Shown here piece after piece: positions 4,408-64,000 of a DNA stretch of 64,000 bases; positions within the stretch are counted from its first letter, which is position 1, and each line of letters begins with the position of its first letter. This DNA is from a virus (taxonomy: Duplodnaviria > Heunggongvirae > Uroviricota > Caudoviricetes). The stretch covers positions 67,101 to 131,100 of the IMG/VR virus record IMGVR_UViG_3300047320_000132. One strand, 5' to 3'. Both the position numbers and the translations under genes were made by a program. Under the pieces are notes generated by a model that had not been told where the DNA came from, made no database searches, and worked only from the letters and a program-made list of their open reading frames with translations.

Positions 4408-5304
4408 ATGAAACTGAATCAGCCTTTTACCCGTCGCATCATTTCCCCTAACGAAGAACGTGTTGCATTCAATACACCGGAGCCGGTAAAGGCTGAGGTT
4501 TCTGAGGTTCCCCCTCTTACTCCGAAAGAAGACGATGTTCCTTCGTTAGTTTCGAATAAGCCTGAAGTGCCTAGACTTGAACGGGCTTCGTCGTCTAAGA
4601 AACAAGTTGAACTCAAGGTTCCGGGAGAGGAAGAAGTTGAAGCTTCAATAGCTATGACCGATGGCGAGGTGCTTTCGCCTGAACTTCGTCAAGCGGCAGA
4701 GCCGGAAGTTCCTGAGCTTCAGCCCAAGAAGTCTGTTGAAGATGTCCTTGCAATCCCTAAGCTTGTCGTTACTAAACGTGAGCCGGTAGCTGTAGATCCG
4801 ATTGACATTCCGAAACTCGATGCGTATAACACGATGGAGGTAGTTCATCTGTTGATCGGTCGTTCACCGGAAGACGAAGAGATCATTTTGCTTCAGTCGT
4901 TTCCTGAGCGCTTCGTTCGCACCAAGAAGACGGAGGAATTTCACGCTTCTCTGCTAGCCAGGGTAAGCAGTCACTACTCAAGTATGGTGGATGCCCGGAA
5001 GTATGATTTTGAGGAGCGTCAACATCACCATGTTCTTGCCCCTAAGCCTATTTCTGCTCTCCACGCTAATAAGGGCGTGGAATGGATGGCGTACGTGCTT
5101 GATGATGGTAAAGCTGCTGAAGCGGATATCATTGGCTATGCATTACAACATAGCGTAGCTGATACAGTAGCTATACGGGAAATCAATGAGGCAAAACTGT
5201 ATCAGAGGGATCCTTCTTACGTTTTCACCTGGGCATTGGTGAAAGTGAAGATCGGCCACGACTTCGGTTCCTACAAGTTGTCTGAACTGATGCCTTCGCT
5301 GTAA
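4408..5304 (+). CDS. hypothetical protein with Pro/Glu-rich N-terminal region
   Basis: 298 aa. Low-complexity PE-rich N-terminus and a globular C-terminus. Followed by a terminator hairpin at about 5305-5340. Confidence 0.5.
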   Translation: MKLNQPFTRRIISPNEERVAFNTPEPVKAEVSEVPPLTPKEDDVPSLVSNKPEVPRLERASSSKKQVELKVPGEEEVEASIAMTDGEVLSPELRQAAEPEVPELQPKKSVEDVLAIPKLVVTKREPVAVDPIDIPKLDAYNTMEVVHLLIGRSPEDEEIILLQSFPERFVRTKKTEEFHASLLARVSSHYSSMVDARKYDFEERQHHHVLAPKPISALHANKGVEWMAYVLDDGKAAEADIIGYALQHSVADTVAIREINEAKLYQRDPSYVFTWALVKVKIGHDFGSYKLSELMPSL

Positions 5305-5540: not shown

Positions 5541-5940
5541 TGTCCAATTTGTCCAATTTCACTTTGCGCTCTTGGACAGCCTCAAACGTATGCTGGCTAA
5601 GGCTTTCAGAGGATTTGTCCAATTGTCCAGTTTTTTTTCTCAACCATACCTCACTTCCTTTTTCACAATAAATTTACTAGAAAATAAAAACATAGGGTTT
5701 ACACCTAGAGTCTAAGAATCCGGGGGTCTTATATATATATAATATTTGAACTTTTTAAAAAATATATTTATATATAAGAGAGGTATTGTGGGTTTTGTAA
5801 AAAGATGTGTTACTCAATTAGAAAGTGAGGTATGGTTGAAAATTTTTTCTGGACAATTGGACAAATCCTCTGAAACCCAAGCTGGATAAGGCTTTGCGGC
5901 TGTCCAGTTTCATTTTATTTTTTGGACAAATTGGACACGA
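5541..5940. repeat. about 110-bp imperfect inverted repeat flanking an AT-rich core, built from TTGTCCAAT iterons
   Basis: The left arm (5541-5655) is the reverse complement of the right arm (5821-5940), sharing GGTTTCAGAGGATTTGTCCAATTGTCCAG and TTGTCCAATTTGTCCAA. A partial copy sits at 5941-6000. A further copy runs from 63874 to 64000 and is cut off by the window end. Confidence 0.7.
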
Positions 5941-6179
5941 AGCTCTGAAAGCCAAGCTGGGTAAGGCTTTGCGGGTTTTTGGGTTTGTCCAGTTTTTTTA
6001 AAGTCATCATTCAGGTCCTCTTTTGGTATAAGTAAAGTATGGAGAGAACTGTTGATTTCGCCTTCAGCAGAGTTCCCCTTACCTTGAATTGGGCTTACGA
6101 TTTCGTAGGGCCTTGACAAGTTGGTCTTTTACCGGAAGCTGATCCCCAATCTTCATCCGGTTTTTTTTGGTCAATTGAA

Positions 6180-13856: not shown

Positions 13857-15158
13857 ATGGCCGTACTTACTATCGGGTCTTCGAACCCCAAGTTTTCCTG
13901 GATCATTTCCAAGAACCCTGCAACGATTCGTGAAAGCGCAGAGCCCTACAAGAAATCGATCCGTCAAGGTATGGCGTATGGATGGTTCGGAGCCGATAAT
14001 CAGAGCTTTCGACTTTGGTTTAAAGACAGTCCTCAGAACTGTTCTTTTGCGGAGGGCATTGGCCAAGAGTTTGAATATCTTGACCGTACCCGTTACGCAT
14101 CTCCCTACTTGCCGATTTCGCTGATTACGAACTGTCTTGCTACAGCGTTCAAAACTGTTCAGGAAGAAGACGTTACTGAGCCGTGGAGCGCATATCTGGA
14201 AACTACGGTCGAAATTCGCAGCGCCAGCATGTTGAATCATCTGAATCAACACTTCAATGGTTCCTTCGGGTTGGACAATGGGTACAGCTTCGTAGCCGAG
14301 CATATTGCAGGCTGTGCGTACAAGGTCACTATCTCGGGACCTACCGTTCACGAAATGCTCAATGCGGCAATGGTAATTTTCCTGATGTTCTGCGTTTCGA
14401 CAAAGAGCATCTATGTCAACCTCAAGGGCGATATCGTTGAGAAGTACATTGCTGCGATCAATCGTATCAATGCACCGTACTTCATTCGTTACCTCTTCAA
14501 ACGGAATGTATTTTCAAATCGTGACACATTTCTTAAGAACAAATCGCTGCTTGATACGGACACGATCAACCTCTGGCACGGTGACACCCTTGCTCAGCGT
14601 AAAGAAGCTATCTTCCCCCACCTGGGAGGAGGAGCGACACTCGTTGACATTGGGTGCGGTGAACTCAATTACACGCTCCCACTCAGTTCGAAATATGAAC
14701 AGGTCCTTGCGTTTGAAGCGGATGACGAACTCCGCGAGAACATGCTTGAAAAACTCAAGGGACGAGAAGTCGAAAACGTTATTCTCCGAGATGCTGCAAC
14801 TCCCGAATCGATTGATGAGTGTTCCTTGCTCTTTAGCGGAGCAGACGTGCTCATCACAGAAGTTCTGGAGCACATTCCTCTTAAAGATGCAAAACAGCTT
14901 GTTGATGCCGTTCTGAAGACTGACTTTAACAAGTTGGTTATCACGGTTCCGAACAAGGCTTTCAATGTGAATTATCTGATGACAGAAGATCAGTTCCGTC
15001 ACGATGATCACAAGTGGGAAATGAATGAACAGGACTTCTACGATTGGTTCTGGAAAATCTCTAAGTCCCATGCAGTTTCAACTATCGGCCAAGGTATCGG
15101 CGATGCGGTAAATGGCGTTCACACTTCGACGATGCTTGTCGTAACGAAAAACAAGTAA
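13857..15158 (+). CDS. hen1: Hen1-like RNA 3'-terminal 2'-O-methyltransferase (partner of Pnkp)
   Basis: 433 aa. The C-terminal SAM methyltransferase motif I LVDIGCGELNY matches bacterial Hen1. The gene sits immediately upstream of the Pnkp-like gene. Confidence 0.7.
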   Translation: MAVLTIGSSNPKFSWIISKNPATIRESAEPYKKSIRQGMAYGWFGADNQSFRLWFKDSPQNCSFAEGIGQEFEYLDRTRYASPYLPISLITNCLATAFKTVQEEDVTEPWSAYLETTVEIRSASMLNHLNQHFNGSFGLDNGYSFVAEHIAGCAYKVTISGPTVHEMLNAAMVIFLMFCVSTKSIYVNLKGDIVEKYIAAINRINAPYFIRYLFKRNVFSNRDTFLKNKSLLDTDTINLWHGDTLAQRKEAIFPHLGGGATLVDIGCGELNYTLPLSSKYEQVLAFEADDELRENMLEKLKGREVENVILRDAATPESIDECSLLFSGADVLITEVLEHIPLKDAKQLVDAVLKTDFNKLVITVPNKAFNVNYLMTEDQFRHDDHKWEMNEQDFYDWFWKISKSHAVSTIGQGIGDAVNGVHTSTMLVVTKNK

Positions 15159-15167
15159 GGATCAACA

Positions 15168-17591
15168 ATGAAAATTCAAACTAAACTCCACACAGTCTTC
15201 ATTTTGGTTGGCCCTTCGATGTGCGGTAAAACCACATTCTCGAAACAGTTCGAACTTGTGTTGAACTTTCAGTTGATGAAAGCAGGACTTGCTGCAGGTT
15301 CGAAGGTTGTAAACTTGAATTCTGATGCTGAACGAATGAACGTCTTGGATGATTTGAGTCTCCATCGTTACGCTCCGGTCATGATGGAAGCTTCGGAAGC
15401 AGCTTTCAACGTGATGATGGCGAAGTTTAAAGCGGCAATTGCGTTCCCGATCAACAGTGAATTCGTAATCGTTGATACTACTGGTATGAACGATACGTTC
15501 CGAAAGGAAATTCGTAAACTCGCTGAAGAAAACGAATATCGTACTGAATTGATTACGTTTGAATATCCGAACTATCAGTACTGGTCGGAATCGAATGAGG
15601 AAGAAAAACGGGTTGTAGAATCGAGCGCCAAGCGATTCAAACAAAGCGTCCTTCCAAATCTCGGTCGTAAAGATCATGATGATTGTATTCGTATCCGTGA
15701 ACGAGACGCCAAAAAGTGGACAGATCTGGAAGTTGAAATCGAAGATTTGGGCAAGTACGCAGCTACTCAGCTCTATCTCGGTCGAGACATGCAGGTGAAT
15801 ATCATCGGAGATGTACATGAACACACGGAAGCTGCTGAACAGCTTGTAGCTAAGGTCGGTGCAAATAGCATCAATGTTCTTGTCGGTGATTACATTGACA
15901 AGGGTAATGACACTGCCAAAGCAATTGCCTTCGCCAGGAAGTTTCACACCGACGGCGGCATTATTGTCCACGGTAATCACGAATCGTATGCTGTGAAGCG
16001 TATCAAGGGTGAAATCAAAAACCCTGATCTGGAGATGGAATCGAAGTATATGAGTTCGCTTGACGTTCTGTTGAAAGACGAAACGTTGGCAGCAGAGCTT
16101 GTGGACTTGTTCGATCGCTGTTCTGTTCCGTTCTTGAAGATTCACGGCAACCAAGTCCGTACAGTTTACGTAACCCATGCTCCGTGCGAGCAGAAGTATT
16201 TGGGTAAGATGAGTTCTGCAGCACTTAAGGCTCAGCGCAATCTGTACGGTGATCGAAAAGAAGACTACCGGAAGGCTTATGAGTTTATTTTCAAGGAAGC
16301 TGTTGGGAATTTTCCTTTGCATGTGTTTGGGCACGTTGCTCACAATGCAGCCAAATTGGAACATCGTAACAAGGTGTTTCTCGATACTGGGGCTGTTTAT
16401 GGCGGCAAGCTTACTGCTTTCTGTTACAAAGGAAATCGTTACTGGTTTGATTCGGTTCAGGCAGCTGAAAAGGTAACGGTTCACAAGGGTCTTCAGAACT
16501 TCTTGACGACTCCGATAGCACCTCCGCAGAAGCCGTTCAATATCTACGACTACAAACTGTCGCCGGAAGATATGAGATTTCTGAAGCGTACTATCGCAAA
16601 CCGAGTTCAGTACATTTCAGGAACTATGGCCCCTGCCCCGTCGACTAACACTGAAATCGAAAGTCTTGAAGCTGGACTTGAGTATTTCAAAAGTCGTGGA
16701 ACGAAGCGGGTCATGCTTCAACCGAAGTACATGGGTTCACGTTGTCAGGCGTATCTATATCGTGGTAAGCCGGAAGAGTGTTTCCTGGTTTCCCGCAATG
16801 GCTTCAAGATTCGCATGACAGAAGACCTTACTGTTATGATTCAGGAACTGCTTGCTAAGTACGAAGGAGAAAGTATCGACTTCTGGCAAGAAGAACTGAT
16901 TCTTGATGGTGAACTTCTGCCGTGGACGACCCTTGGTAAAAGTCTGGTTGACGAACAGTTCCGTGCGTATGAAGGTTTGGTACGTTACGAACTGGATGCA
17001 TTGGCTAACGATGAGGAATTTGCCAAGTTGGGATTCAAGACAAAGGTCGACGTCGAAGCTCGTCAGACTGACTTGAAAGTGTTCAGCGAAACACTAGACA
17101 TCTATGCTCAGGAAGGCCGTCCAGAATACAGTGCATTCTCTATTCTGAAGGTTGACGGTAAGGTGTTTGGTGACAAATTCCAGATTGCAGATTCCTTTGA
17201 CTTGGTTAACCAGGACGACATCGTAATCATCGACCTTGAAAACGATAAAGAGGCTTTGGAAAATGCAAAGACTTTCTTCAACTGTAAAACCGTTGATGAA
17301 AAGATGGAAGGCCTTGTAATCAAGCCTCTTGACGGTACGGCAGATGTTGCACCGTATATGAAGGTTCGGAATGAAAATTACCTGACTCTTGTGTATGGCT
17401 ATGATTACAAGAACCGTTATGAAGCCCTGTGTCGTCAAAAACGTGTCGGCGGTAAGCTGAAGGTTTCTATCAAGGAACACGATCTTGCACTGGCAATGCT
17501 GACAGCAGACAATGGCCCTGCTCTGACTGAACTGGTTGTGAAAATGATCTCGCAACTGAATGAAGAAAAGACGCTGGATCCGCGTTTGTAA
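15168..17591 (+). CDS. pnkp: Polynucleotide kinase-phosphatase with ligase-like adenylyltransferase domain (bacterial Pnkp-type RNA repair enzyme)
   Basis: 807 aa. P-loop kinase ILVGPSMCGKTT. Metallophosphatase motifs GDVHE, GDYIDKGND, VHGNHES. C-terminal nucleotidyltransferase/ligase-like domain around QPKYMGSRC. Domain order matches Pnkp of the Pnkp-Hen1 RNA repair system. Confidence 0.8.
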   Translation: MKIQTKLHTVFILVGPSMCGKTTFSKQFELVLNFQLMKAGLAAGSKVVNLNSDAERMNVLDDLSLHRYAPVMMEASEAAFNVMMAKFKAAIAFPINSEFVIVDTTGMNDTFRKEIRKLAEENEYRTELITFEYPNYQYWSESNEEEKRVVESSAKRFKQSVLPNLGRKDHDDCIRIRERDAKKWTDLEVEIEDLGKYAATQLYLGRDMQVNIIGDVHEHTEAAEQLVAKVGANSINVLVGDYIDKGNDTAKAIAFARKFHTDGGIIVHGNHESYAVKRIKGEIKNPDLEMESKYMSSLDVLLKDETLAAELVDLFDRCSVPFLKIHGNQVRTVYVTHAPCEQKYLGKMSSAALKAQRNLYGDRKEDYRKAYEFIFKEAVGNFPLHVFGHVAHNAAKLEHRNKVFLDTGAVYGGKLTAFCYKGNRYWFDSVQAAEKVTVHKGLQNFLTTPIAPPQKPFNIYDYKLSPEDMRFLKRTIANRVQYISGTMAPAPSTNTEIESLEAGLEYFKSRGTKRVMLQPKYMGSRCQAYLYRGKPEECFLVSRNGFKIRMTEDLTVMIQELLAKYEGESIDFWQEELILDGELLPWTTLGKSLVDEQFRAYEGLVRYELDALANDEEFAKLGFKTKVDVEARQTDLKVFSETLDIYAQEGRPEYSAFSILKVDGKVFGDKFQIADSFDLVNQDDIVIIDLENDKEALENAKTFFNCKTVDEKMEGLVIKPLDGTADVAPYMKVRNENYLTLVYGYDYKNRYEALCRQKRVGGKLKVSIKEHDLALAMLTADNGPALTELVVKMISQLNEEKTLDPRL

Positions 17592-17610
17592 TTAAAGAAA
17601 CAAGGCTTTA

Positions 17611-17620
17611 GTGGTATAAG
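17611..17620 (+). promoter_or_regulatory. GTGGTATAAG promoter motif after pnkp, heading a structured noncoding region
   Basis: GTGGTATAAGTGAATTGG. About 300 nt of noncoding sequence follows. Confidence 0.4.
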
Positions 17621-17933
17621 TGAATTGGAATAACGTATGCTTCATTTACGTCGTAAGTGAGAGGGTAGAGTAACTTTACCCATATACTCTCCCAGCTCCA
17701 AGTTCTGAAACAGAACTTTACGCTGGGTTCCGGGCCACGCCCAACGAGGTTATTCCGTAACCAGGCCGAGATGTTTTCGGCTAGCTTCGCAAGTATCTGT
17801 TCGTTTTAGATTGTTAAACCGAAAGCCAGGGAGCAACTCCCTGGTGTATAATTCGGGCTCTTGAAATAAAAGCTCGCCCGGAATACCCCTACGTGTTGCG
17901 AAGTGACCAACGTAACAAATCAAGGAGAAATTA

Positions 17934-18284
17934 GTGTCTGAACGTAATTTGGGAGAGATCCGTCAAACTGAACTGGATCTCATTGAACAACTCACTGCAG
18001 CTAACGCTGCTGGTGAAGCTATCGTTTATCCGGTAGCAATACGCACGAAGTATTGTGCATGTTCAAGTTATGGAGAGACTGACTGTCGGTTTCATTCCAG
18101 ACTTGAACCAGGTTGGGAAGTATGTCCGGAAATCACTGAGGCTTCGCAGATCGGAACCCTCAAGAATGGGCGTTGGCTGTACATCACAACCGGTGAACCT
18201 GTCAATCAGGATGATCCGACTGAAGCACAAGACAAGGCACTCGCAGATCGCCTGTCAAATGAGCTGATTAAGGCCGTACAGTAA
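17934..18284 (+). CDS. hypothetical protein
   Basis: 116 aa. GTG start with an RBS. Preceded by a 300-nt structured noncoding region. Confidence 0.4.
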   Translation: MSERNLGEIRQTELDLIEQLTAANAAGEAIVYPVAIRTKYCACSSYGETDCRFHSRLEPGWEVCPEITEASQIGTLKNGRWLYITTGEPVNQDDPTEAQDKALADRLSNELIKAVQ

Positions 18285-31424: not shown

Positions 31425-31500
31425 GGGAATATAGCTCAGTTGGCAGAGCAGCGGATTCTAAATCTGAAGGTCTCGGGTTCGAGCCCCGATGTTCCTACCA
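31425..31500 (+). tRNA. tRNA with CUA anticodon (amber suppressor-type). Amino acid identity unresolved.
   Basis: A 76-nt canonical cloverleaf. Acceptor GGGAATA/TGTTCCT. D-arm GCTC-AGTTGGCA-GAGC. Anticodon stem GCGGA/TCTGA, loop TTCTAAA, so positions 34-36 are CTA. Short variable arm. T-arm TCGGG-TTCGAGC-CCCGA. A73. CCA encoded. Confidence 0.55.
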
Positions 31501-59404: not shown

Positions 59405-59486
59405 ATAATCGCTGTGTAGTATACTTGGGGCATAGCCTCTGAACGCTGTGTCCCTTCTGTTAAATCTCGGAACAACAGAGGCGATC

Positions 59487-59651
59487 ATGATGAATGAAGT
59501 TATTAGCGTTGCAGAGTACGAAGAAGGTTTTGCCTTGATCGAAGATTCTCAAGGCAAGTACATGGTTACAAAGGACAGCCCTGAGATCACTGAAATACAG
59601 TTTCCTCGGTGTTACCTCACAGATCGTGATCGTCAAGCCCTTCTGACGTAA
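59487..59651 (+). CDS. hypothetical small protein
   Basis: About 54 aa from the internal Met. Confidence 0.3.
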   Translation: MMNEVISVAEYEEGFALIEDSQGKYMVTKDSPEITEIQFPRCYLTDRDRQALLT

Positions 59652-60296
59652 CACAAGAACAAGTTGCATGCGGAAGTAAGGTCCGTTCTCCTGCCCGGAA
59701 TGAGCAACCTGGGTTACCTTGCAGAATTGCTTCCATGACTTAGTATTTTGTAACGACAACGTTACTAGAAGTTTGTAACAGGCTTCAAAGTTGTCTTCCG
59801 CCCAGCTTGCAGCTGGAGCGGAGACCCGAGATGTCTTCGCCGAGAAGAAGAACATCTTGTCCTTGGCCGCCGGCGCCGAAGGTTCCGGAGACGGGTATAG
59901 TAATACACATGAGTTAGTCGTGGTATAATCGTAGTAGAAGTAAAGCAGGGCTCTCGTAGCTCTGCTAAAGCAGAAGTTTGAAGTATCAAACTGTCATTGT
60001 GGAAGGCCATCTATTGGTTGAAAGCAACGGGACAGAGAGTATCTGTAACAGTGCTCTACGCTTCTCGCTACACAACGCGAAAAGCAAAATCTCTACCCAG
60101 CTGGTTGCTGGGTAAAGGCAAATTCTGGGACGTCGTCGAAGCAGGTCTTCTACCCTGGTAAAGGTACCTTTATCAGGCTGGAGCACGAGGCTTCGTAGCA
60201 GAATGAGTTCAAACTAAAAGAGCCGACGAATTTGGGTTACCGCCAAAATTGACTCCAAGTTCATAAACTTGCTCTTTCAATAAATTTCGTTTTAGT

Positions 60297-60306
60297 GGTA
60301 TAATGT
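60297..60306 (+). promoter_or_regulatory. GTGGTATAAT promoter motif inside the noncoding repeat region
   Basis: A consensus extended -10 with no ORF downstream for about 780 nt. Confidence 0.4.
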
Positions 60307-60420
60307 TTATGTAGAGCCGCATTTAACTAGGTTATCTATTGCTCAGAAACCTCCTAGTTATATTCTTTGTTCTACTTCCGCTTTAATCCTGAAGCAGTCG
60401 TCAATGACTGTTTTGGTATT

Positions 60421-61050
60421 AAAGTTCATGGGCCGTAGAAATGGATTATCTAATCCCAAATCGCAAGTCACAGGTTCGAGTCCTGTAACCCGCTGCAGTT
60501 GCGGGTTTAATTCAGTTGGCAGAATGGCGATTCCTGATTCTATTTCGATCTCTTGCCTATCTCAGTTTCACGAGCCGAATGTTCAAGGTTATCTACTAAG
60601 CCAAAGTTAGAATAAAGCGTATTACGCAGTTTCCGGAAACGGGATAGTACCTAGGTCTAACACCGTTGTACTCTGCTTGAGCTAAAGCTATCGCGGGTGA
60701 ATCCTGCATCTCCTTGACAATCCTTGCTCGTATCAAGTTTCACGACGAACCGAAAGCGTAGGGTTATCTACAAACTTCAATTGGTGAAAACTGTTAGGTC
60801 GAAAGACCATCTCCCTTGCACCACTTGTTCGTCTTCCGTTTATGCTGAACCGCTAGTATTGTGTTATCTCCATTATCAGGACGTATTTCAGGTTCGAATC
60901 CTGACGGCACAATTAAGAGCATTCTGTGTTCTTGGTTGTGCTGTAGTTAAACTGGTATAACGCGTAAAACGCGCAGTACACTCTTTGTTCAGCTTCAAGT
61001 TTGTGAGCCGTTCAGATTTGGATTATCCTTTTAAGATTTCCTCCAGATCA
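60421..61050 (+). repeat. five copies of an approximately 40-nt element AGTTTCAYGRGCCG...GGTTATCTAC carrying DnaA-box-like TTATCYACA cores. Two copies are followed by tRNA T-arm mimics.
   Basis: Copies begin near 60421, 60556, 60731, 60827 and 60981. GGTTCGAGTCC and GGTTCGAATCC stem-loops follow copies 1 and 4. Confidence 0.5.
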
Positions 61051-61079
61051 ATTTCATTTGCTCACTTCAGTTTTATACA

Positions 61080-61526
61080 TTGCTAGTATTTAGCATGTCA
61101 ACTAATTCAAATTCTAAAAAATCACAACAGTTAGGTATGCCGTTTGGTACCGCCACAAATAAGCTCAGAAAAAAAGTAATGTTTTCTCTATTAGTCAGAC
61201 ACCGAGAAAATATATGTTTTAAATGCTCAAAAGATATTGAAACAGAAAATGAACTTAGCATTGAGCATAAAAAAGATTGGTTAGATGTAGGTTCTGAATT
61301 ATTCTGGGATATAGACAACATTGCATTTTCACATCTCAAATGTAATAAACCTAGAAAAGAATTCTACGAGAGTACTCGAAAAAATATAGTAGATGGTAAA
61401 CAAGAATGTTTCTCGTGTAAAACGTTTAAACCAATTTCTGAATTTTGGAAAAACAGAACCCGACATAGTGGGATAGACAGTCAATGTAAAGATTGTGTAA
61501 AAAGATACAGACGCAGTAAAAAATGA
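61080..61526 (+). CDS. HNH homing endonuclease
   Basis: 148 aa. SIEHKKDW...NIAFSHLKCN is an HNH motif. Cys pairs CFKC and CFSC...CKDC. Confidence 0.7.
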   Translation: MLVFSMSTNSNSKKSQQLGMPFGTATNKLRKKVMFSLLVRHRENICFKCSKDIETENELSIEHKKDWLDVGSELFWDIDNIAFSHLKCNKPRKEFYESTRKNIVDGKQECFSCKTFKPISEFWKNRTRHSGIDSQCKDCVKRYRRSKK

Positions 61527-61544
61527 CCTTTCGTATGTAACCAA

Positions 61545-61925
61545 GTAGTATGTTGGTAGTCAGGGAGCAACTTCCTGGTTAAATCTGCCACCGGTCCGTT
61601 CCGCTACGTTCGTTACGTGCTTCGCACTACACGACCTACGCTGCACTACCCGGAGGCGATGAGGAGATCTGCCCCAGAACGGGCAATGAGGTTAGGTCAT
61701 AACCCCGCAACACCAAGACTTACGTATTTTGTTTCAATGAAACGATGATAGAGTAACTCTGTCAGATATCGGTTCAGCTTCGCTGACTGGGATGTGCTCC
61801 AGGAGCACGAGCTGGGGGTACCCGTCGTACCCCGGGGAAGAGCTGCAGCATGGTTCTTCTTAACACCACATGAGGTAAGTCCAAAGGTCTGTTAGCTTCG
61901 GCTTTCAGACCTTCTTTTTTTAGTC
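61545..61925 (+). ncRNA. candidate structured noncoding RNA (Y RNA / YrlA-like?) immediately upstream of the Ro60 homolog
   Basis: About 380 nt with no ORF. GC-rich with many local helices, for example CAGGGAGCAACTTCCTGG and CCCCGGGG palindromes. Ends in an intrinsic terminator GGTCTGTTAGCTTCGGCTTTCAGACC plus a T-run at about 61885-61921, directly before the RBS of the Rsr gene. Confidence 0.4.
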
Positions 61926-61956
61926 AGTTAAACTTTGTTCCTCAAGGAGCCTTAAC

Positions 61957-63579
61957 ATGTCTTTCAATTCCCTCTCTAACAATACCAACACCCGCACTCA
62001 AGCAAAGACTACGGTTCAGACCAAACCGGCTGGTAATGCTTCTGTCGCTCAAGTAAAGAACAACGCTGGCGGCTTTGTGTTTGAGGTAACGCCTCTGCAG
62101 AAGCTCGATCGTTTCCTGATCATCGGTACGAGCGGTGGTACGTTCTATCAGTCCGAGAAAGATATCACCAAGGCCAAGGTCGACGATATCGTCAAGTTGA
62201 TCCAAACGAATGGTAAGGTTGTGGTCGACCGTATCGTTGAGATCAGCCAGGCTGGTCGTGCCAAGAACAATGACTACGCGTTGCTTGCTATGGCGTTGGT
62301 CTTCACTCACGGTGACGTGGCTACGAAACTGTATGCCAAGGACAAAGTGAACCTCGTGGCTCGTACTGGCACACACTTTCTGCACTTCGTGAACTTCGCT
62401 TCCGGCCTTCGCGGATGGGGCCGTAGTCTTAAGAACGTTGCTCAAAAATGGTACTCGGATAAAACGGTAACAAATCTTGCGTATCAAGTCGTTAAGTACA
62501 AACAAAGAGACGGATGGTCGCACCGCGATGTTCTTAGACTCAGCCACGTAAAGCCTGGCGAAGACGTGGTTCGTCAAAACCTTTACAAGTACATCGTGAA
62601 GGGTCCGGAAGCGCTTGCTATAGGTGACCAGGTTCCTGAGCTTCTGATTGCAGTAGAAGAGGCTAAGACCTGCAACAAGAACAAGCTTGTACAGCTTATC
62701 GGCGAACACAGGCTTACGCATGAAATGGTCCCGAACGAAATGAAGTCGCATCCTGAAGTCTGGGAAGCACTCGTTCCGCATATGGGCCTGAATGCATTGG
62801 TTCGTAACCTGAACAAGCTGACGGCTGTTGGACTGATCAAGCCTTTCTCGGAAACGAGTAAGCTGGTCACGACCAAGCTTCTGGATGTGGAACAGCTTCG
62901 TAAGGAACGTCTGCATCCGATGTCGATTATCGTTGCTAAGAAGATCTACTCTCAAGGCAAGGGCGATAAGGGTTCGCTGGTTTGGACCCCGGACAATACC
63001 GTCAAGGATACGCTTGAAGCGGCGTTCTACCTTTCGTTCGACGCGGTGGAACCGTCTGGTAAGAATATTGTTCTGGCGCTTGACGTGTCAGGTTCAATGG
63101 GTTCGGCTATTCCGGGTGTTCCGCAGTTGACGTGTTGTGAAGGTGCTGCACTGATGGCTATGGTTTCGGCTCGTACGGAACCTTGGACTGAAGTGTTGGG
63201 CTTCGCTAAGACGTTCAAGCCGCTGAACATCACGAAGCACGATACGCTTGAATCGGCTACCACCAAGGCGCATGACTGGAACTTCGGTTCTACGAACTGT
63301 GCTTTGCCTGCTGAACATGCGCTTGCACACCGTTGGAACGTAGATGCGTTCTGTATCTATACGGACAACGAGACGTATGCTGGTAAACAGCACCCGTTTC
63401 AAGCAATGCAGAAGTATCGTCAGGGCATGAACAAGCCTGATGCAAAGCTGATCGTAGTCGGTATGGCAGTCAATGACTTCAGCATCGCAGATCCCAAGGA
63501 TCCGAACATGCTTGATGTTGTGGGCTTCGATACGCAGACGCCGCGTTTCATGTCTGAATTTATAGCTGGACGTATCTAA
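61957..63579 (+). CDS. rsr: Ro60/TROVE-domain protein (Rsr ortholog) with C-terminal vWA domain
   Basis: 540 aa. LQKLDRFLIIGTSGGTFYQSEKDI...IVKLIQTNGKVVVDRIVEISQAGRAKNNDYALLAMALVF aligns to the human Ro60 N-terminus (LHRFLCFGSEGGTYY...IRLIEDGRG...VIQEIKSFSQEGR...EPMLFALA). The C-terminal vWA MIDAS is VLALDVSGSMGS. Confidence 0.8.
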   Translation: MSFNSLSNNTNTRTQAKTTVQTKPAGNASVAQVKNNAGGFVFEVTPLQKLDRFLIIGTSGGTFYQSEKDITKAKVDDIVKLIQTNGKVVVDRIVEISQAGRAKNNDYALLAMALVFTHGDVATKLYAKDKVNLVARTGTHFLHFVNFASGLRGWGRSLKNVAQKWYSDKTVTNLAYQVVKYKQRDGWSHRDVLRLSHVKPGEDVVRQNLYKYIVKGPEALAIGDQVPELLIAVEEAKTCNKNKLVQLIGEHRLTHEMVPNEMKSHPEVWEALVPHMGLNALVRNLNKLTAVGLIKPFSETSKLVTTKLLDVEQLRKERLHPMSIIVAKKIYSQGKGDKGSLVWTPDNTVKDTLEAAFYLSFDAVEPSGKNIVLALDVSGSMGSAIPGVPQLTCCEGAALMAMVSARTEPWTEVLGFAKTFKPLNITKHDTLESATTKAHDWNFGSTNCALPAEHALAHRWNVDAFCIYTDNETYAGKQHPFQAMQKYRQGMNKPDAKLIVVGMAVNDFSIADPKDPNMLDVVGFDTQTPRFMSEFIAGRI

Positions 63580-63591
63580 CAAGGAGTCAAC

Positions 63592-63831
63592 GTGAGAGAA
63601 GAAGATTACGAATCGCTCAAGAAATTGAGCAGAGAAGAGTTTCAAGAGTATCTGAAGGCTCTTACGGTGACTCAGCAGTTAGAGCTGCTTGAGCTTGGCA
63701 TGAAAGACCTTGAGAAGTCTGTCGAGGCAGCATCTGAAAGTTTGCAAAAGAACTTCTCAAAGCAACTTGAACTTCAAGACTCTTCCCGGAAGGAAATGGA
63801 AGCGTTGCTCGTGAAGGTTATGGTTCGTTAA
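63592..63831 (+). CDS. hypothetical coiled-coil protein
   Basis: 79 aa. GTG start. Followed by a terminator. Confidence 0.35.
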   Translation: MREEDYESLKKLSREEFQEYLKALTVTQQLELLELGMKDLEKSVEAASESLQKNFSKQLELQDSSRKEMEALLVKVMVR

Positions 63832-63835
63832 ACAA

Positions 63836-63870
63836 AAAGGCCGGGGTTTCGACTCGGCTTTTTTTAGCCT
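63836..63870 (+). terminator. intrinsic terminator, same family as the one at 52452
   Basis: GGCCGGGGTTTCGACTCGGCT hairpin followed by TTTTTTTAG. Confidence 0.55.
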
Positions 63871-64000
63871 TGAAAAAAACTGGACAAATGAGGAATCACT
63901 GAAAGCCTTACTGGTATTGGGTTGCTGGTTACGTGTCCAATTTGTCCAATTTCACTTTGCACTATTGGACAGCCGCAAAGCCTTATCTGGCTTGAGTTCT

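Follow-up and report, generated by a model that had tools for sequence, protein, structure and literature searches.

A phage Ro60 gene with a probable tandem array of Y RNA partners and a separate structured RNA at its 5′ side

We analyzed the locus of rsr, a Ro60 gene, in a 64,000-nucleotide (nt) stretch of DNA from a virus of the class Caudoviricetes (positions 67,101 to 131,100 of IMG/VR record IMGVR_UViG_3300047320_000132). We refer to this whole stretch as the window, and coordinates are those of the window unless a relative is named. A preliminary description of the locus had proposed that the structured RNA directly upstream of rsr is the Y RNA bound by the encoded protein. We consider it likely that rsr is a true Ro60 gene, that its Y RNA partners are seven tandem units at 60218 to 61065, and that the RNA directly upstream of rsr belongs to a separate family, which we call M modules. 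For the protein, and for the locus overall, the preliminary description was right; it was wrong for the RNA that it pointed at.

The open reading frame (ORF) at 61957 to 63579 on the + strand encodes 540 amino acids (aa). The product matched the Pfam families vWA_Ro60 (8.3e-58) and TROVE (6.4e-36), both past the cut-offs, with the TROVE HEAT-repeat ring followed by the Ro60-type vWA domain, as in Ro60/Rsr proteins. It also matched PHROG 850, "RNA-binding protein" (2.5e-83), and aligned over nearly its full length with Deinococcus radiodurans Rsr (2nvo, 1.5e-110, covering residues 30 to 539) and with Xenopus Ro60 (1yvp, 9e-100). The DxSxS motif of the MIDAS (metal ion-dependent adhesion site) is present as DVSGS, and D376, S378, and S380 were invariant across 28 homologues; 7603 Ro60 homologues were found at an E value of ≤1e-20. 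The identification as Ro60 (Rsr) made earlier was borne out by these matches, and the motifs then quoted for it, LDRFLIIGTSGGTFYQSE, LLAMALVF, and DVSGSMGS, were all found in the translation. Judged by its domains and alignments, the ORF is evidently a genuine full-length Ro60 gene. The start codon (ATG at 61957) is preceded by the ribosome-binding site (RBS) AAGGAG at 61944 to 61949 (+).

The relatives compared below are Ro60 loci fetched at 52 to 96% Ro60 identity (L001, L004 to L006, L084 to L091, and L092 to L098), each on a metagenomic contig of phage size (≤181 kb). In 12 of 15 relatives, the rsr RBS reads AAGGAGCC or nearly so (AGGAG); it diverges in L090 and L098 (GAAAGCC) and in L091 (TAGGAGAC).

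We found seven Y units arranged head to tail at 60218 to 61065 on the + strand, 0.9 to 1.7 kb upstream of rsr. The unit descriptor gave seven units on the + strand of the window, none on the − strand, and zero to two in shuffles; relatives had 3 to 10. Two units are YrlA-like. In U3 (60428 to 60560), a T-arm (60470 to 60486), an acceptor-like hairpin (60487 to 60507), and a D-arm (60510 to 60525) follow one another, and in U6 (60845 to 60992) the same elements lie at 60888 to 60904, 60905 to 60943 (a closed hairpin), and 60946 to 60961. This order, T-arm, closed acceptor-like stem-loop, and D-arm, is the permuted tRNA-like arrangement of YrlA RNAs. Consistently with this, Rfam YrlA (RF02553) gave subthreshold matches at 60462 to 60530 in U3 (28.1 bits, E = 0.0015) and 60886 to 60961 in U6 (23.3 bits), which span the three tRNA-like elements (Rfam model positions 23 to 86). 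In relatives the whole YrlA model aligned, with up to 44.9 bits (E = 3e-8). The YrlA gathering score of 69 bits was reached neither by the partial matches in U3 and U6 nor by the best relative, and ARAGORN called no tRNA at the tRNA-like domains of U3 and U6. Both units lie 0.96 to 1.5 kb upstream of rsr on its strand, within the distance used for YrlA RNAs (<4 kb from rsr, same strand; Chen et al. 2014, PMC4201824). The literal GNCGAAN0-1G motif, the proposed Rsr contact, was not found near the 5′ end of U3 or U6. In its place the Y units bear GRNC-CG, for example, as GGACCGU or UGAACCGC.

The remaining units are simpler. U1 (60218 to 60276) and U2 (60312 to 60374) are minimal, and U2 consists of an outer helix, an inner helix, and a UUAUC loop. 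U4 (60570 to 60731) and U5 (60745 to 60832) have no tRNA-like domain, and U7 (61003 to 61065) is short, with the outer helix GUGAGC/GCUCAC. All of these were found with the unit descriptor. U1 to U7 all share the long end-to-end stem with a conserved bulged helix that defines Y RNAs in the broad sense; inside this outer helix come an inner helix and a UUAUC loop. As a separate observation, the largest array that we saw was in L087 (2262 to 3632), with ten tandem Y-type units, four of which had Rfam YrlA matches.

We built a covariance model, R1, from nine YrlA-like units of this clade, leaving the outer helix unmodeled. R1 scored U3 at 50 bits and U6 at 103 bits and found 41 units at an E value of <1e-5 across 13 Ro60 loci. 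Its four helices were 98.5% paired (98% for the inner helix), and in 19 of 20 pairs both sides had changed; all three tRNA-like helices were at least 96% paired in the 41 units, again with changes on both sides. The outer helix, which lies outside R1 and is formed by the unit ends (5′-NNNRNC-CG ... YUU-GNYNNN-3′), was paired in 233 of 234 cells from 39 units, compared with 25 to 41% when the partner strand was slid, and its C-CG and UU-G flanks were invariant. These 39 units were taken without reference to the helix and anchored at two points only, the CG and the tail's first TG, and the test is not circular. We had also considered GGUUAUC/UUGUCC as the outer helix, following the Rfam alignment, and rejected it; the flanks put the real outer helix further out. 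The 3′ UUGUCC of the Y units resembles the UUGAC(C/U) of animal Y RNAs. U1 to U7 are probable Ro60 partners.

A Y RNA module at the rsr locus, as had been proposed, is thus present, at 60218 to 61065 and not in the stretch to which it had been assigned; a gene for an HNH homing endonuclease lies between the two. This ORF (61095 to 61526, +, opening at TTG 61080) matched PHROG 23251, HNH endonuclease (4e-18). It is missing from L084, L085, L088, L004, and L095, which carry at the same spot their best YrlA-like unit and further units. The HNH gene stands in place of about 330 nt of the Y array (L084, 3188 to 3536), including the unit that scores best in relatives. Because relatives bear Y units exactly at the HNH position, the window lineage and L001 appear to have lost Y units to a mobile endonuclease gene. 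In L086, a stretch (2678 to 2824) that is 75% identical to the HNH gene has no intact ORF and looks like a decayed copy. We dropped, on inspection by eye, the idea that a group I intron surrounds this gene: no exons were seen, and Rfam had no match.

Between the stop of the HNH ORF (61526) and rsr lie about 430 nt (61527 to 61956), of which 380 nt had been described as free of ORFs, highly structured, and closed by an intrinsic terminator just before the rsr RBS. We found just one trivial 43-aa GTG ORF in this stretch, for which a coding role was dropped when the ORF proved not to be kept in relatives. The stretch folds better than shuffles do (z = −2.49). The terminator lies at 61884 to 61921 (+) and consists of a GC-rich hairpin with the stem AAGGUCUG/CAGACCUU (61884 to 61913, −16.8 kcal/mol, z = −5.8) and a run of seven U residues (61915 to 61921). 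A hairpin and U-run directly precede the rsr RBS in 15 of 15 relatives, with stem sequences that are unrelated between lineages. A simple terminator scan missed this element because its loop limit was 8 nt.

We found that the RNA before this terminator consists of two tandem modules, M3 and M4. The layout of an M module, from 5′ to 3′, is a closing helix, P1 (7 to 9 bp), a GUAU junction, hairpin Pa, hairpin Pb with a G-NAA-C triloop, one to five variable hairpins, the sequence A-Y-G-W-G, and the 3′ strand of P1; modules measure 117 to 245 nt and have 3 to 7 hairpins. M3 (61526 to 61697, +) has the P1 ACCUUUC/GGUUAGGU, with two U-U mismatches in the window phage and perfect pairing in L004, L084, L085, and L088. 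M4 (61717 to 61881, +) has the P1 GACUUAC/GUAAGUC, the GUAU junction, Pa at 61731 to 61743, Pb with its triloop at 61747 to 61763, three further hairpins, and a CAUGAG junction. Covariance across related phages, which the preliminary description had suggested as a check, was evident: compared with L084 and L085, the architecture is kept while the helices change in sequence, for example, from CAGGGAG-CAA-CUUCCUG to CAUAGAG-AAA-CUCUAUG. When whole M3 and M4 orthologues were aligned with MAFFT, the variable hairpins fell out of register, and RNAalifold therefore yielded no more than P1, Pa, and Pb.

The window holds six M copies, all on the + strand: M1 and M2 after pnkp, M5 and M6 before the Y array, and M3 and M4 after it. 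M1 lies at 17627 to 17756, M2 at 17785 to 17903, M5 at 59736 to 59919 (Pb at 59768 to 59786), and M6 at 59976 to 60214 (P1 GUUUGAA/UUCAAAC). The 18-nt hairpin motif that had been reported as shared with the noncoding region after pnkp, CAGGGAGCAACTYCCTGG, does occur exactly twice, at 17827 and 61561, where none would be expected by chance. It is shared because it is the Pb hairpin of M3 (61561 to 61577) and of M2 (17826 to 17844). In the 1.13 Mb of fetched loci, a strict M descriptor gave 29 matches on the + strand, none on the − strand, and 1 in a shuffle, and all but one of the matches were within this phage clade. Across 30 copies, P1 and Pb were 94.8% paired, compared with 32 to 43% when slid, a figure that is partly circular because the copies were gathered with a pairing rule; both sides changed in 13 of 14 pairs. 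M1 and M2 are kept after pnkp in one relative, with compensatory changes. M1 has two triloop hairpins, G-UAA-C (17663 to 17681) and G-AAA-C (17700 to 17716), and both are kept in L172 with compensatory changes.

Searches for known families at these sites were negative. At an E value of ≤10, Rfam gave no family match for any of the six M copies and only chance-level snoRNA and miRNA matches on 61400 to 62050 and 17560 to 17960; at the gathering score it found only tRNAs in the whole window. A hammerhead was set aside by eye because neither a CUGANGA nor a GAAA core was present, and so were a k-turn or C/D box (strand order wrong) and a CsrB-like sponge (no GGA loops). The DNA pattern CGTAT-N-AGAGTAACTCT gave mostly chance matches in IMG/VR, with real modules only in L200, L201, L212, L265, and L279. 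A GAAGAGCUGCAG-like sequence with the palindrome CUGCAG occurs in distal M hairpins in the window (61838 to 61850), L307 (about 6120 to 6140), L299 (about 4930 to 4950), and L305.

We then compared the distribution of Y units and M modules with that of Ro60 in 64 loci anchored on the DHHA1-like gene downstream of rsr, reading 8 kb to either side. The six Ro60-positive loci had 5 to 7 Y units as well as M modules, and arrays of 5 to 7 Y units were confined to these loci. L299, L300, L302/303, L305, L307, L309, and L311/312, seven to eight phages in all, lacked both Ro60 within ±8 kb and a Y array; they carried one to three M modules, all of them on the + strand. In L265, which is of the same phage type as L312, tblastn found the syntenic helix-turn-helix (HTH) gene and downstream genes and no Ro60, and R1 with filters off found no unit above 9.8 bits. 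We concluded from Ro60-positive loci with Y units and Ro60-less loci with M modules only that the presence of Y units, but not that of M modules, follows that of Ro60. Even where the flanking proteins share only about 40% identity, the M architecture is retained. The persistence of the M locus without rsr or Y units (also in L200 and L265) suggests either that an older locus of noncoding RNAs gained the Y array and rsr by insertion or that it lost them.

One alternative, which we regard as unlikely, is that the flagged RNA, M3-M4, is itself a Y RNA that belongs to a YrlB-like, non-tRNA class and uses its closing helix and conserved junction to bind Ro60. M3-M4 immediately precedes rsr, on the same strand and with its own terminator, and an M3/M4-like pair before rsr is kept down to 64% Ro60 identity. 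As in Y RNAs, the module ends pair into a closing helix beside the only invariant nucleotides. In Mycobacterium smegmatis, moreover, the Rsr-bound YrlB sits between YrlA and rsr, and RNAs of this type escaped earlier bioinformatic detection (PMC4201824). Set against this, the Rfam Y_RNA and YrlA models, the search proposed in the preliminary description, gave no match to M3-M4 (61526 to 61881) even at an E value of ≤10, and R1 found no unit in 61527 to 61956. M3-M4 is also without the bulged NNNRNC-CG...UU-G outer helix seen in 39 of 39 Y units and has C-GUAU...GAG-G instead. The same module occurs beside pnkp/nrd, after pnkp, and in at least six syntenic phages with no Ro60 or Y units at the locus, so that it does not co-occur with Ro60 as YrlA does. 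Lastly, in the distant Ro60 phages L090, L091, and L098, the RNAs that adjoin rsr are Y units and not M modules.

How M3-M4 and rsr may be transcribed bears on a second alternative. We found an extended −10 motif, [T/G]TGGTATAA[G/T], in 18 copies in the window, all on the + strand and nearly all intergenic (139, 3981, 6023, 12608, 13779, 17611, 23557, 24299, 32761, 37278, 39221, 41248, 45689, 52509, 54411, 59054, 59920, and 60295). This is probably an extended −10 promoter class of the phage with no −35 element, to judge from its sequence and placement. The promoter-like GTGGTATAAG at 17611 to 17620 lies about 7 nt before the start of M1, one GTGGTATAAT at 59920 to 59929 abuts the 3′ end of M5, and another at 60295 to 60304 is the last such motif before rsr. 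Between the 60295 motif and rsr, we found neither the extended −10 motif nor a sigma-70-type site; CTGGTATAAC at 60952 was rejected as a promoter, being the D-loop of U6. The earlier claim that a separate RNA is made upstream of rsr therefore stands in part. The RNA is real, conserved, and terminator capped, but with no promoter motif before it, it was probably cut out of a longer transcript and would not be a 350-nt transcription unit of its own. With no promoter motif between the terminator and rsr, rsr would need read-through.

This need for read-through, together with the order of structured RNA, terminator, and RBS, which is the classic attenuator layout, and the position of M1-M2, also between a promoter and the next ORF, could be taken to mean that the flagged RNA is a cis-acting rsr leader, with M3-M4 and the terminator forming an attenuator or a put- or nut-like antitermination element. 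A conceivable analogue of M3-M4 with the terminator and rsr is offered by the HK022 put RNAs and lambda nut sites, structured elements in phage RNA that lie upstream of terminators needing read-through. They have no sequence or structural similarity to M modules, which occur six times in the window and, in relatives, end rather than open a transcription unit. We found that the terminator stems differ wholly among relatives while M4 P1 is invariant, so that no conserved antiterminator pairing is visible, and that L004, L084, and L085 have an extra hairpin between M4 and the terminator. Moreover, no terminator follows M1-M2, M5 and M6 precede RNA genes and not an ORF, and in Ro60-less phages a terminator follows the M locus and, in several, a fresh promoter motif comes next. 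A leader role seems slightly less probable to us than the already unlikely Y RNA role for M3-M4. That the flagged region is no functional RNA, its similarity being that of drifting spacer or leftover repeats, is very improbable and already disfavored: a fold z of only −2.49 and patchy BLAST similarity to relatives across 61527 to 61880 would fit it, but helices are kept while sequences change among both orthologues and paralogues, the strand bias of the descriptor is complete (29 to 0), and the architecture outlasts the divergence of the flanking proteins noted above.

Several points weigh against our assignment of Y partners to U1-U7 and of M3-M4 to a separate family. Promoters, processing, and Ro60 binding, and indeed every binding partner, are what we infer, and sequences, structures, covariation, and co-occurrence are what we observed. 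The Y units miss both the YrlA gathering score and the literal GNCGAAN0-1G motif. Like the M figure given above, the percentages paired that come from the unit descriptor are partly circular, copies having been gathered partly by a pairing rule. Beyond ±8 kb, the absence of Ro60 from the Ro60-less contigs rests on their not being among the best 80 of the 141 Ro60 relatives kept from IMG/VR. Given the precedent of YrlB-type RNAs, M3/M4 could still bind Ro60 where it is present.

All of these data taken together suggest the following model. One transcript would run from the promoter-like motif at 60295 through U2 to U7, the HNH gene, and M3-M4, and most transcription would end at the terminator at 61921. 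Read-through would supply rsr and a 79-aa ORF in the same orientation (63592 to 63831, +), up to a terminator-like hairpin and U-run at 63835 to 63865, and RNA would thereby outnumber protein. The precursor would be cut into units, on the model of M. smegmatis YrlA/YrlB, and the Y units would load Ro60. The M modules would be separate protein-binding scaffolds of an older phage noncoding RNA locus that received the Y array and rsr by insertion.

M modules are autonomous multihairpin domains and probably not Y RNAs, and the family is a well-supported candidate for a class of phage noncoding RNAs absent from Rfam. We favor a role as protein-binding scaffolds, since invariant bases are confined to the junction and the triloop. 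More speculatively, and with little confidence, the M modules, with six or more copies per genome, may represent a novel class of structured RNA in phages whose junction (GUA/GAG, possibly an S-turn) and G-NAA-C triloop dock a phage or host protein of the RNA damage response, as scaffolds for Hen1-Pnkp or for a 67-aa protein encoded nearby or as decoys for host ribotoxins; separately, the Y array of 7 to 10 units would be an interchangeable adaptor panel for one Ro60 ring.

The 67-aa protein is encoded by a small ORF (54 to 70 aa) between the HTH gene and the M-module locus, at 59448 to 59651 in the window and 5596 to 5808 in the Ro60-less L265. A small ORF is found at this place in each Ro60-carrying relative whose gene calls reach there, and the window and L265 copies, the two compared, have the motif EDSxGK[YF] in common. 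The window ORF had no Pfam or PHROG match; its protein is a candidate partner of M RNAs. The common gene order in relatives is the HTH gene, the small ORF, 1.7 to 2.7 kb without a called gene, and rsr; in most, YqeY and HAD_SAK_2 genes lie further upstream, before the HTH gene. In the window, the noncoding region before rsr spans about 2.3 kb (59652 to 61956) and holds two kinds of RNA gene.

By blastn, 61400 to 63900 had no match in 50,697 phage records, and no cultured phage was similar at the DNA level. Ro60 proteins at ≤43% identity are encoded by 373 cultured phages, mostly actinophages, and the DNA polymerase has its closest counterparts (46 to 49%) in Salmonella phage Arash and some Vibrio phages. 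An IMG/VR scan with the single Ro60 protein gave no match, and the best 80 of 141 relatives were kept from an alignment-based scan. Elsewhere in the window, adjacent genes at 13857 to 17591 encode Hen1 (Hen1_N, 2.6e-50) and Pnkp (kinase, phosphoesterase, and ligase domains), an RNA repair pair of the bacterial type, and one phage here combines Hen1-Pnkp, Ro60, a Y array, and 22 tRNAs. The tRNA region (24351 to 45060) includes a CUA-anticodon tRNA at 31425 to 31500 that is amber-suppressor-like; ARAGORN labeled it "tRNA-Pyl," and Rfam scored it as a tRNA with 60.3 bits.

In bacteria and some phages, the combination of Ro60 and a tRNA-like Y RNA is by now accepted as a platform for RNA repair and quality control. 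YrlA RNAs adjoin Ro60 in 22 phages (Chen et al. 2014, PMC4201824), and a survey of jumbo phages mentions TROVE proteins in the context of RNA repair (PMC7824862). What is new here is the head-to-tail array of Y-like units (7 in the window, up to 10 in relatives), most of them stripped to the predicted Ro-binding stem, which suggests that one Ro60 may be programmable by many adaptor RNAs and would provide a natural set of minimal Ro-binding RNAs. Also new are an outer helix closer to the vertebrate Ro site than to the bacterial GNCGAA motif and a second, unrelated structured-RNA family that flanks the array, recurs beside Hen1-Pnkp, and survives without Ro60. A structured RNA that adjoins rsr is not automatically the Y RNA.

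U3 and U6 resemble YrlA (RF02553) in lying on the same strand within 1.5 kb of rsr, in having ends that form a long interrupted stem, in their distal T-arm, closed acceptor-like hairpin, and D-arm, and in that relatives align to the whole Rfam model. They differ in that the clade scores 23 to 45 bits against a gathering score of 69 bits, in that GNCGAAN0-1G is replaced by GRNC-CG with a UUAUC loop, and in that the units are tandem and most have no tRNA-like domain. M3-M4 shares none of the YrlA-like features of U3 and U6. Xenopus Ro60 contacts the vertebrate GGUCCGA (quoted in PMC4201824), which the GGACCGU of the Y units resembles. The outer helix as a whole is like the bulged GGUC(C)GA/UUGACC helix to which Ro binds. 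The rsr loci of M. smegmatis, in which several Rsr-bound RNAs upstream of rsr (YrlA and YrlB) are cut from one precursor (PMC4201824), and of D. radiodurans, with five small RNAs, likewise have several small RNAs upstream on the same strand, some without the full tRNA-like module. Compared with these, the array here is larger and strictly head to tail, with spacers of about 10 to 50 nt; it has an unrelated RNA family on its flanks, is interrupted by the HNH gene, and is separated from rsr by a conserved terminator. The Ro60 of Thermus phage phiLo, for which binding of Yrl1 and Yrl2 was shown experimentally, is also a phage Ro60 with Y-RNA-like genes in its upstream noncoding region (PMC12135203). 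The two Ro60 proteins are only distantly related (E = 8e-9), and the two phiLo Yrls are defined by a CGAA motif, with no array or M-type modules described there (PMC12135203).

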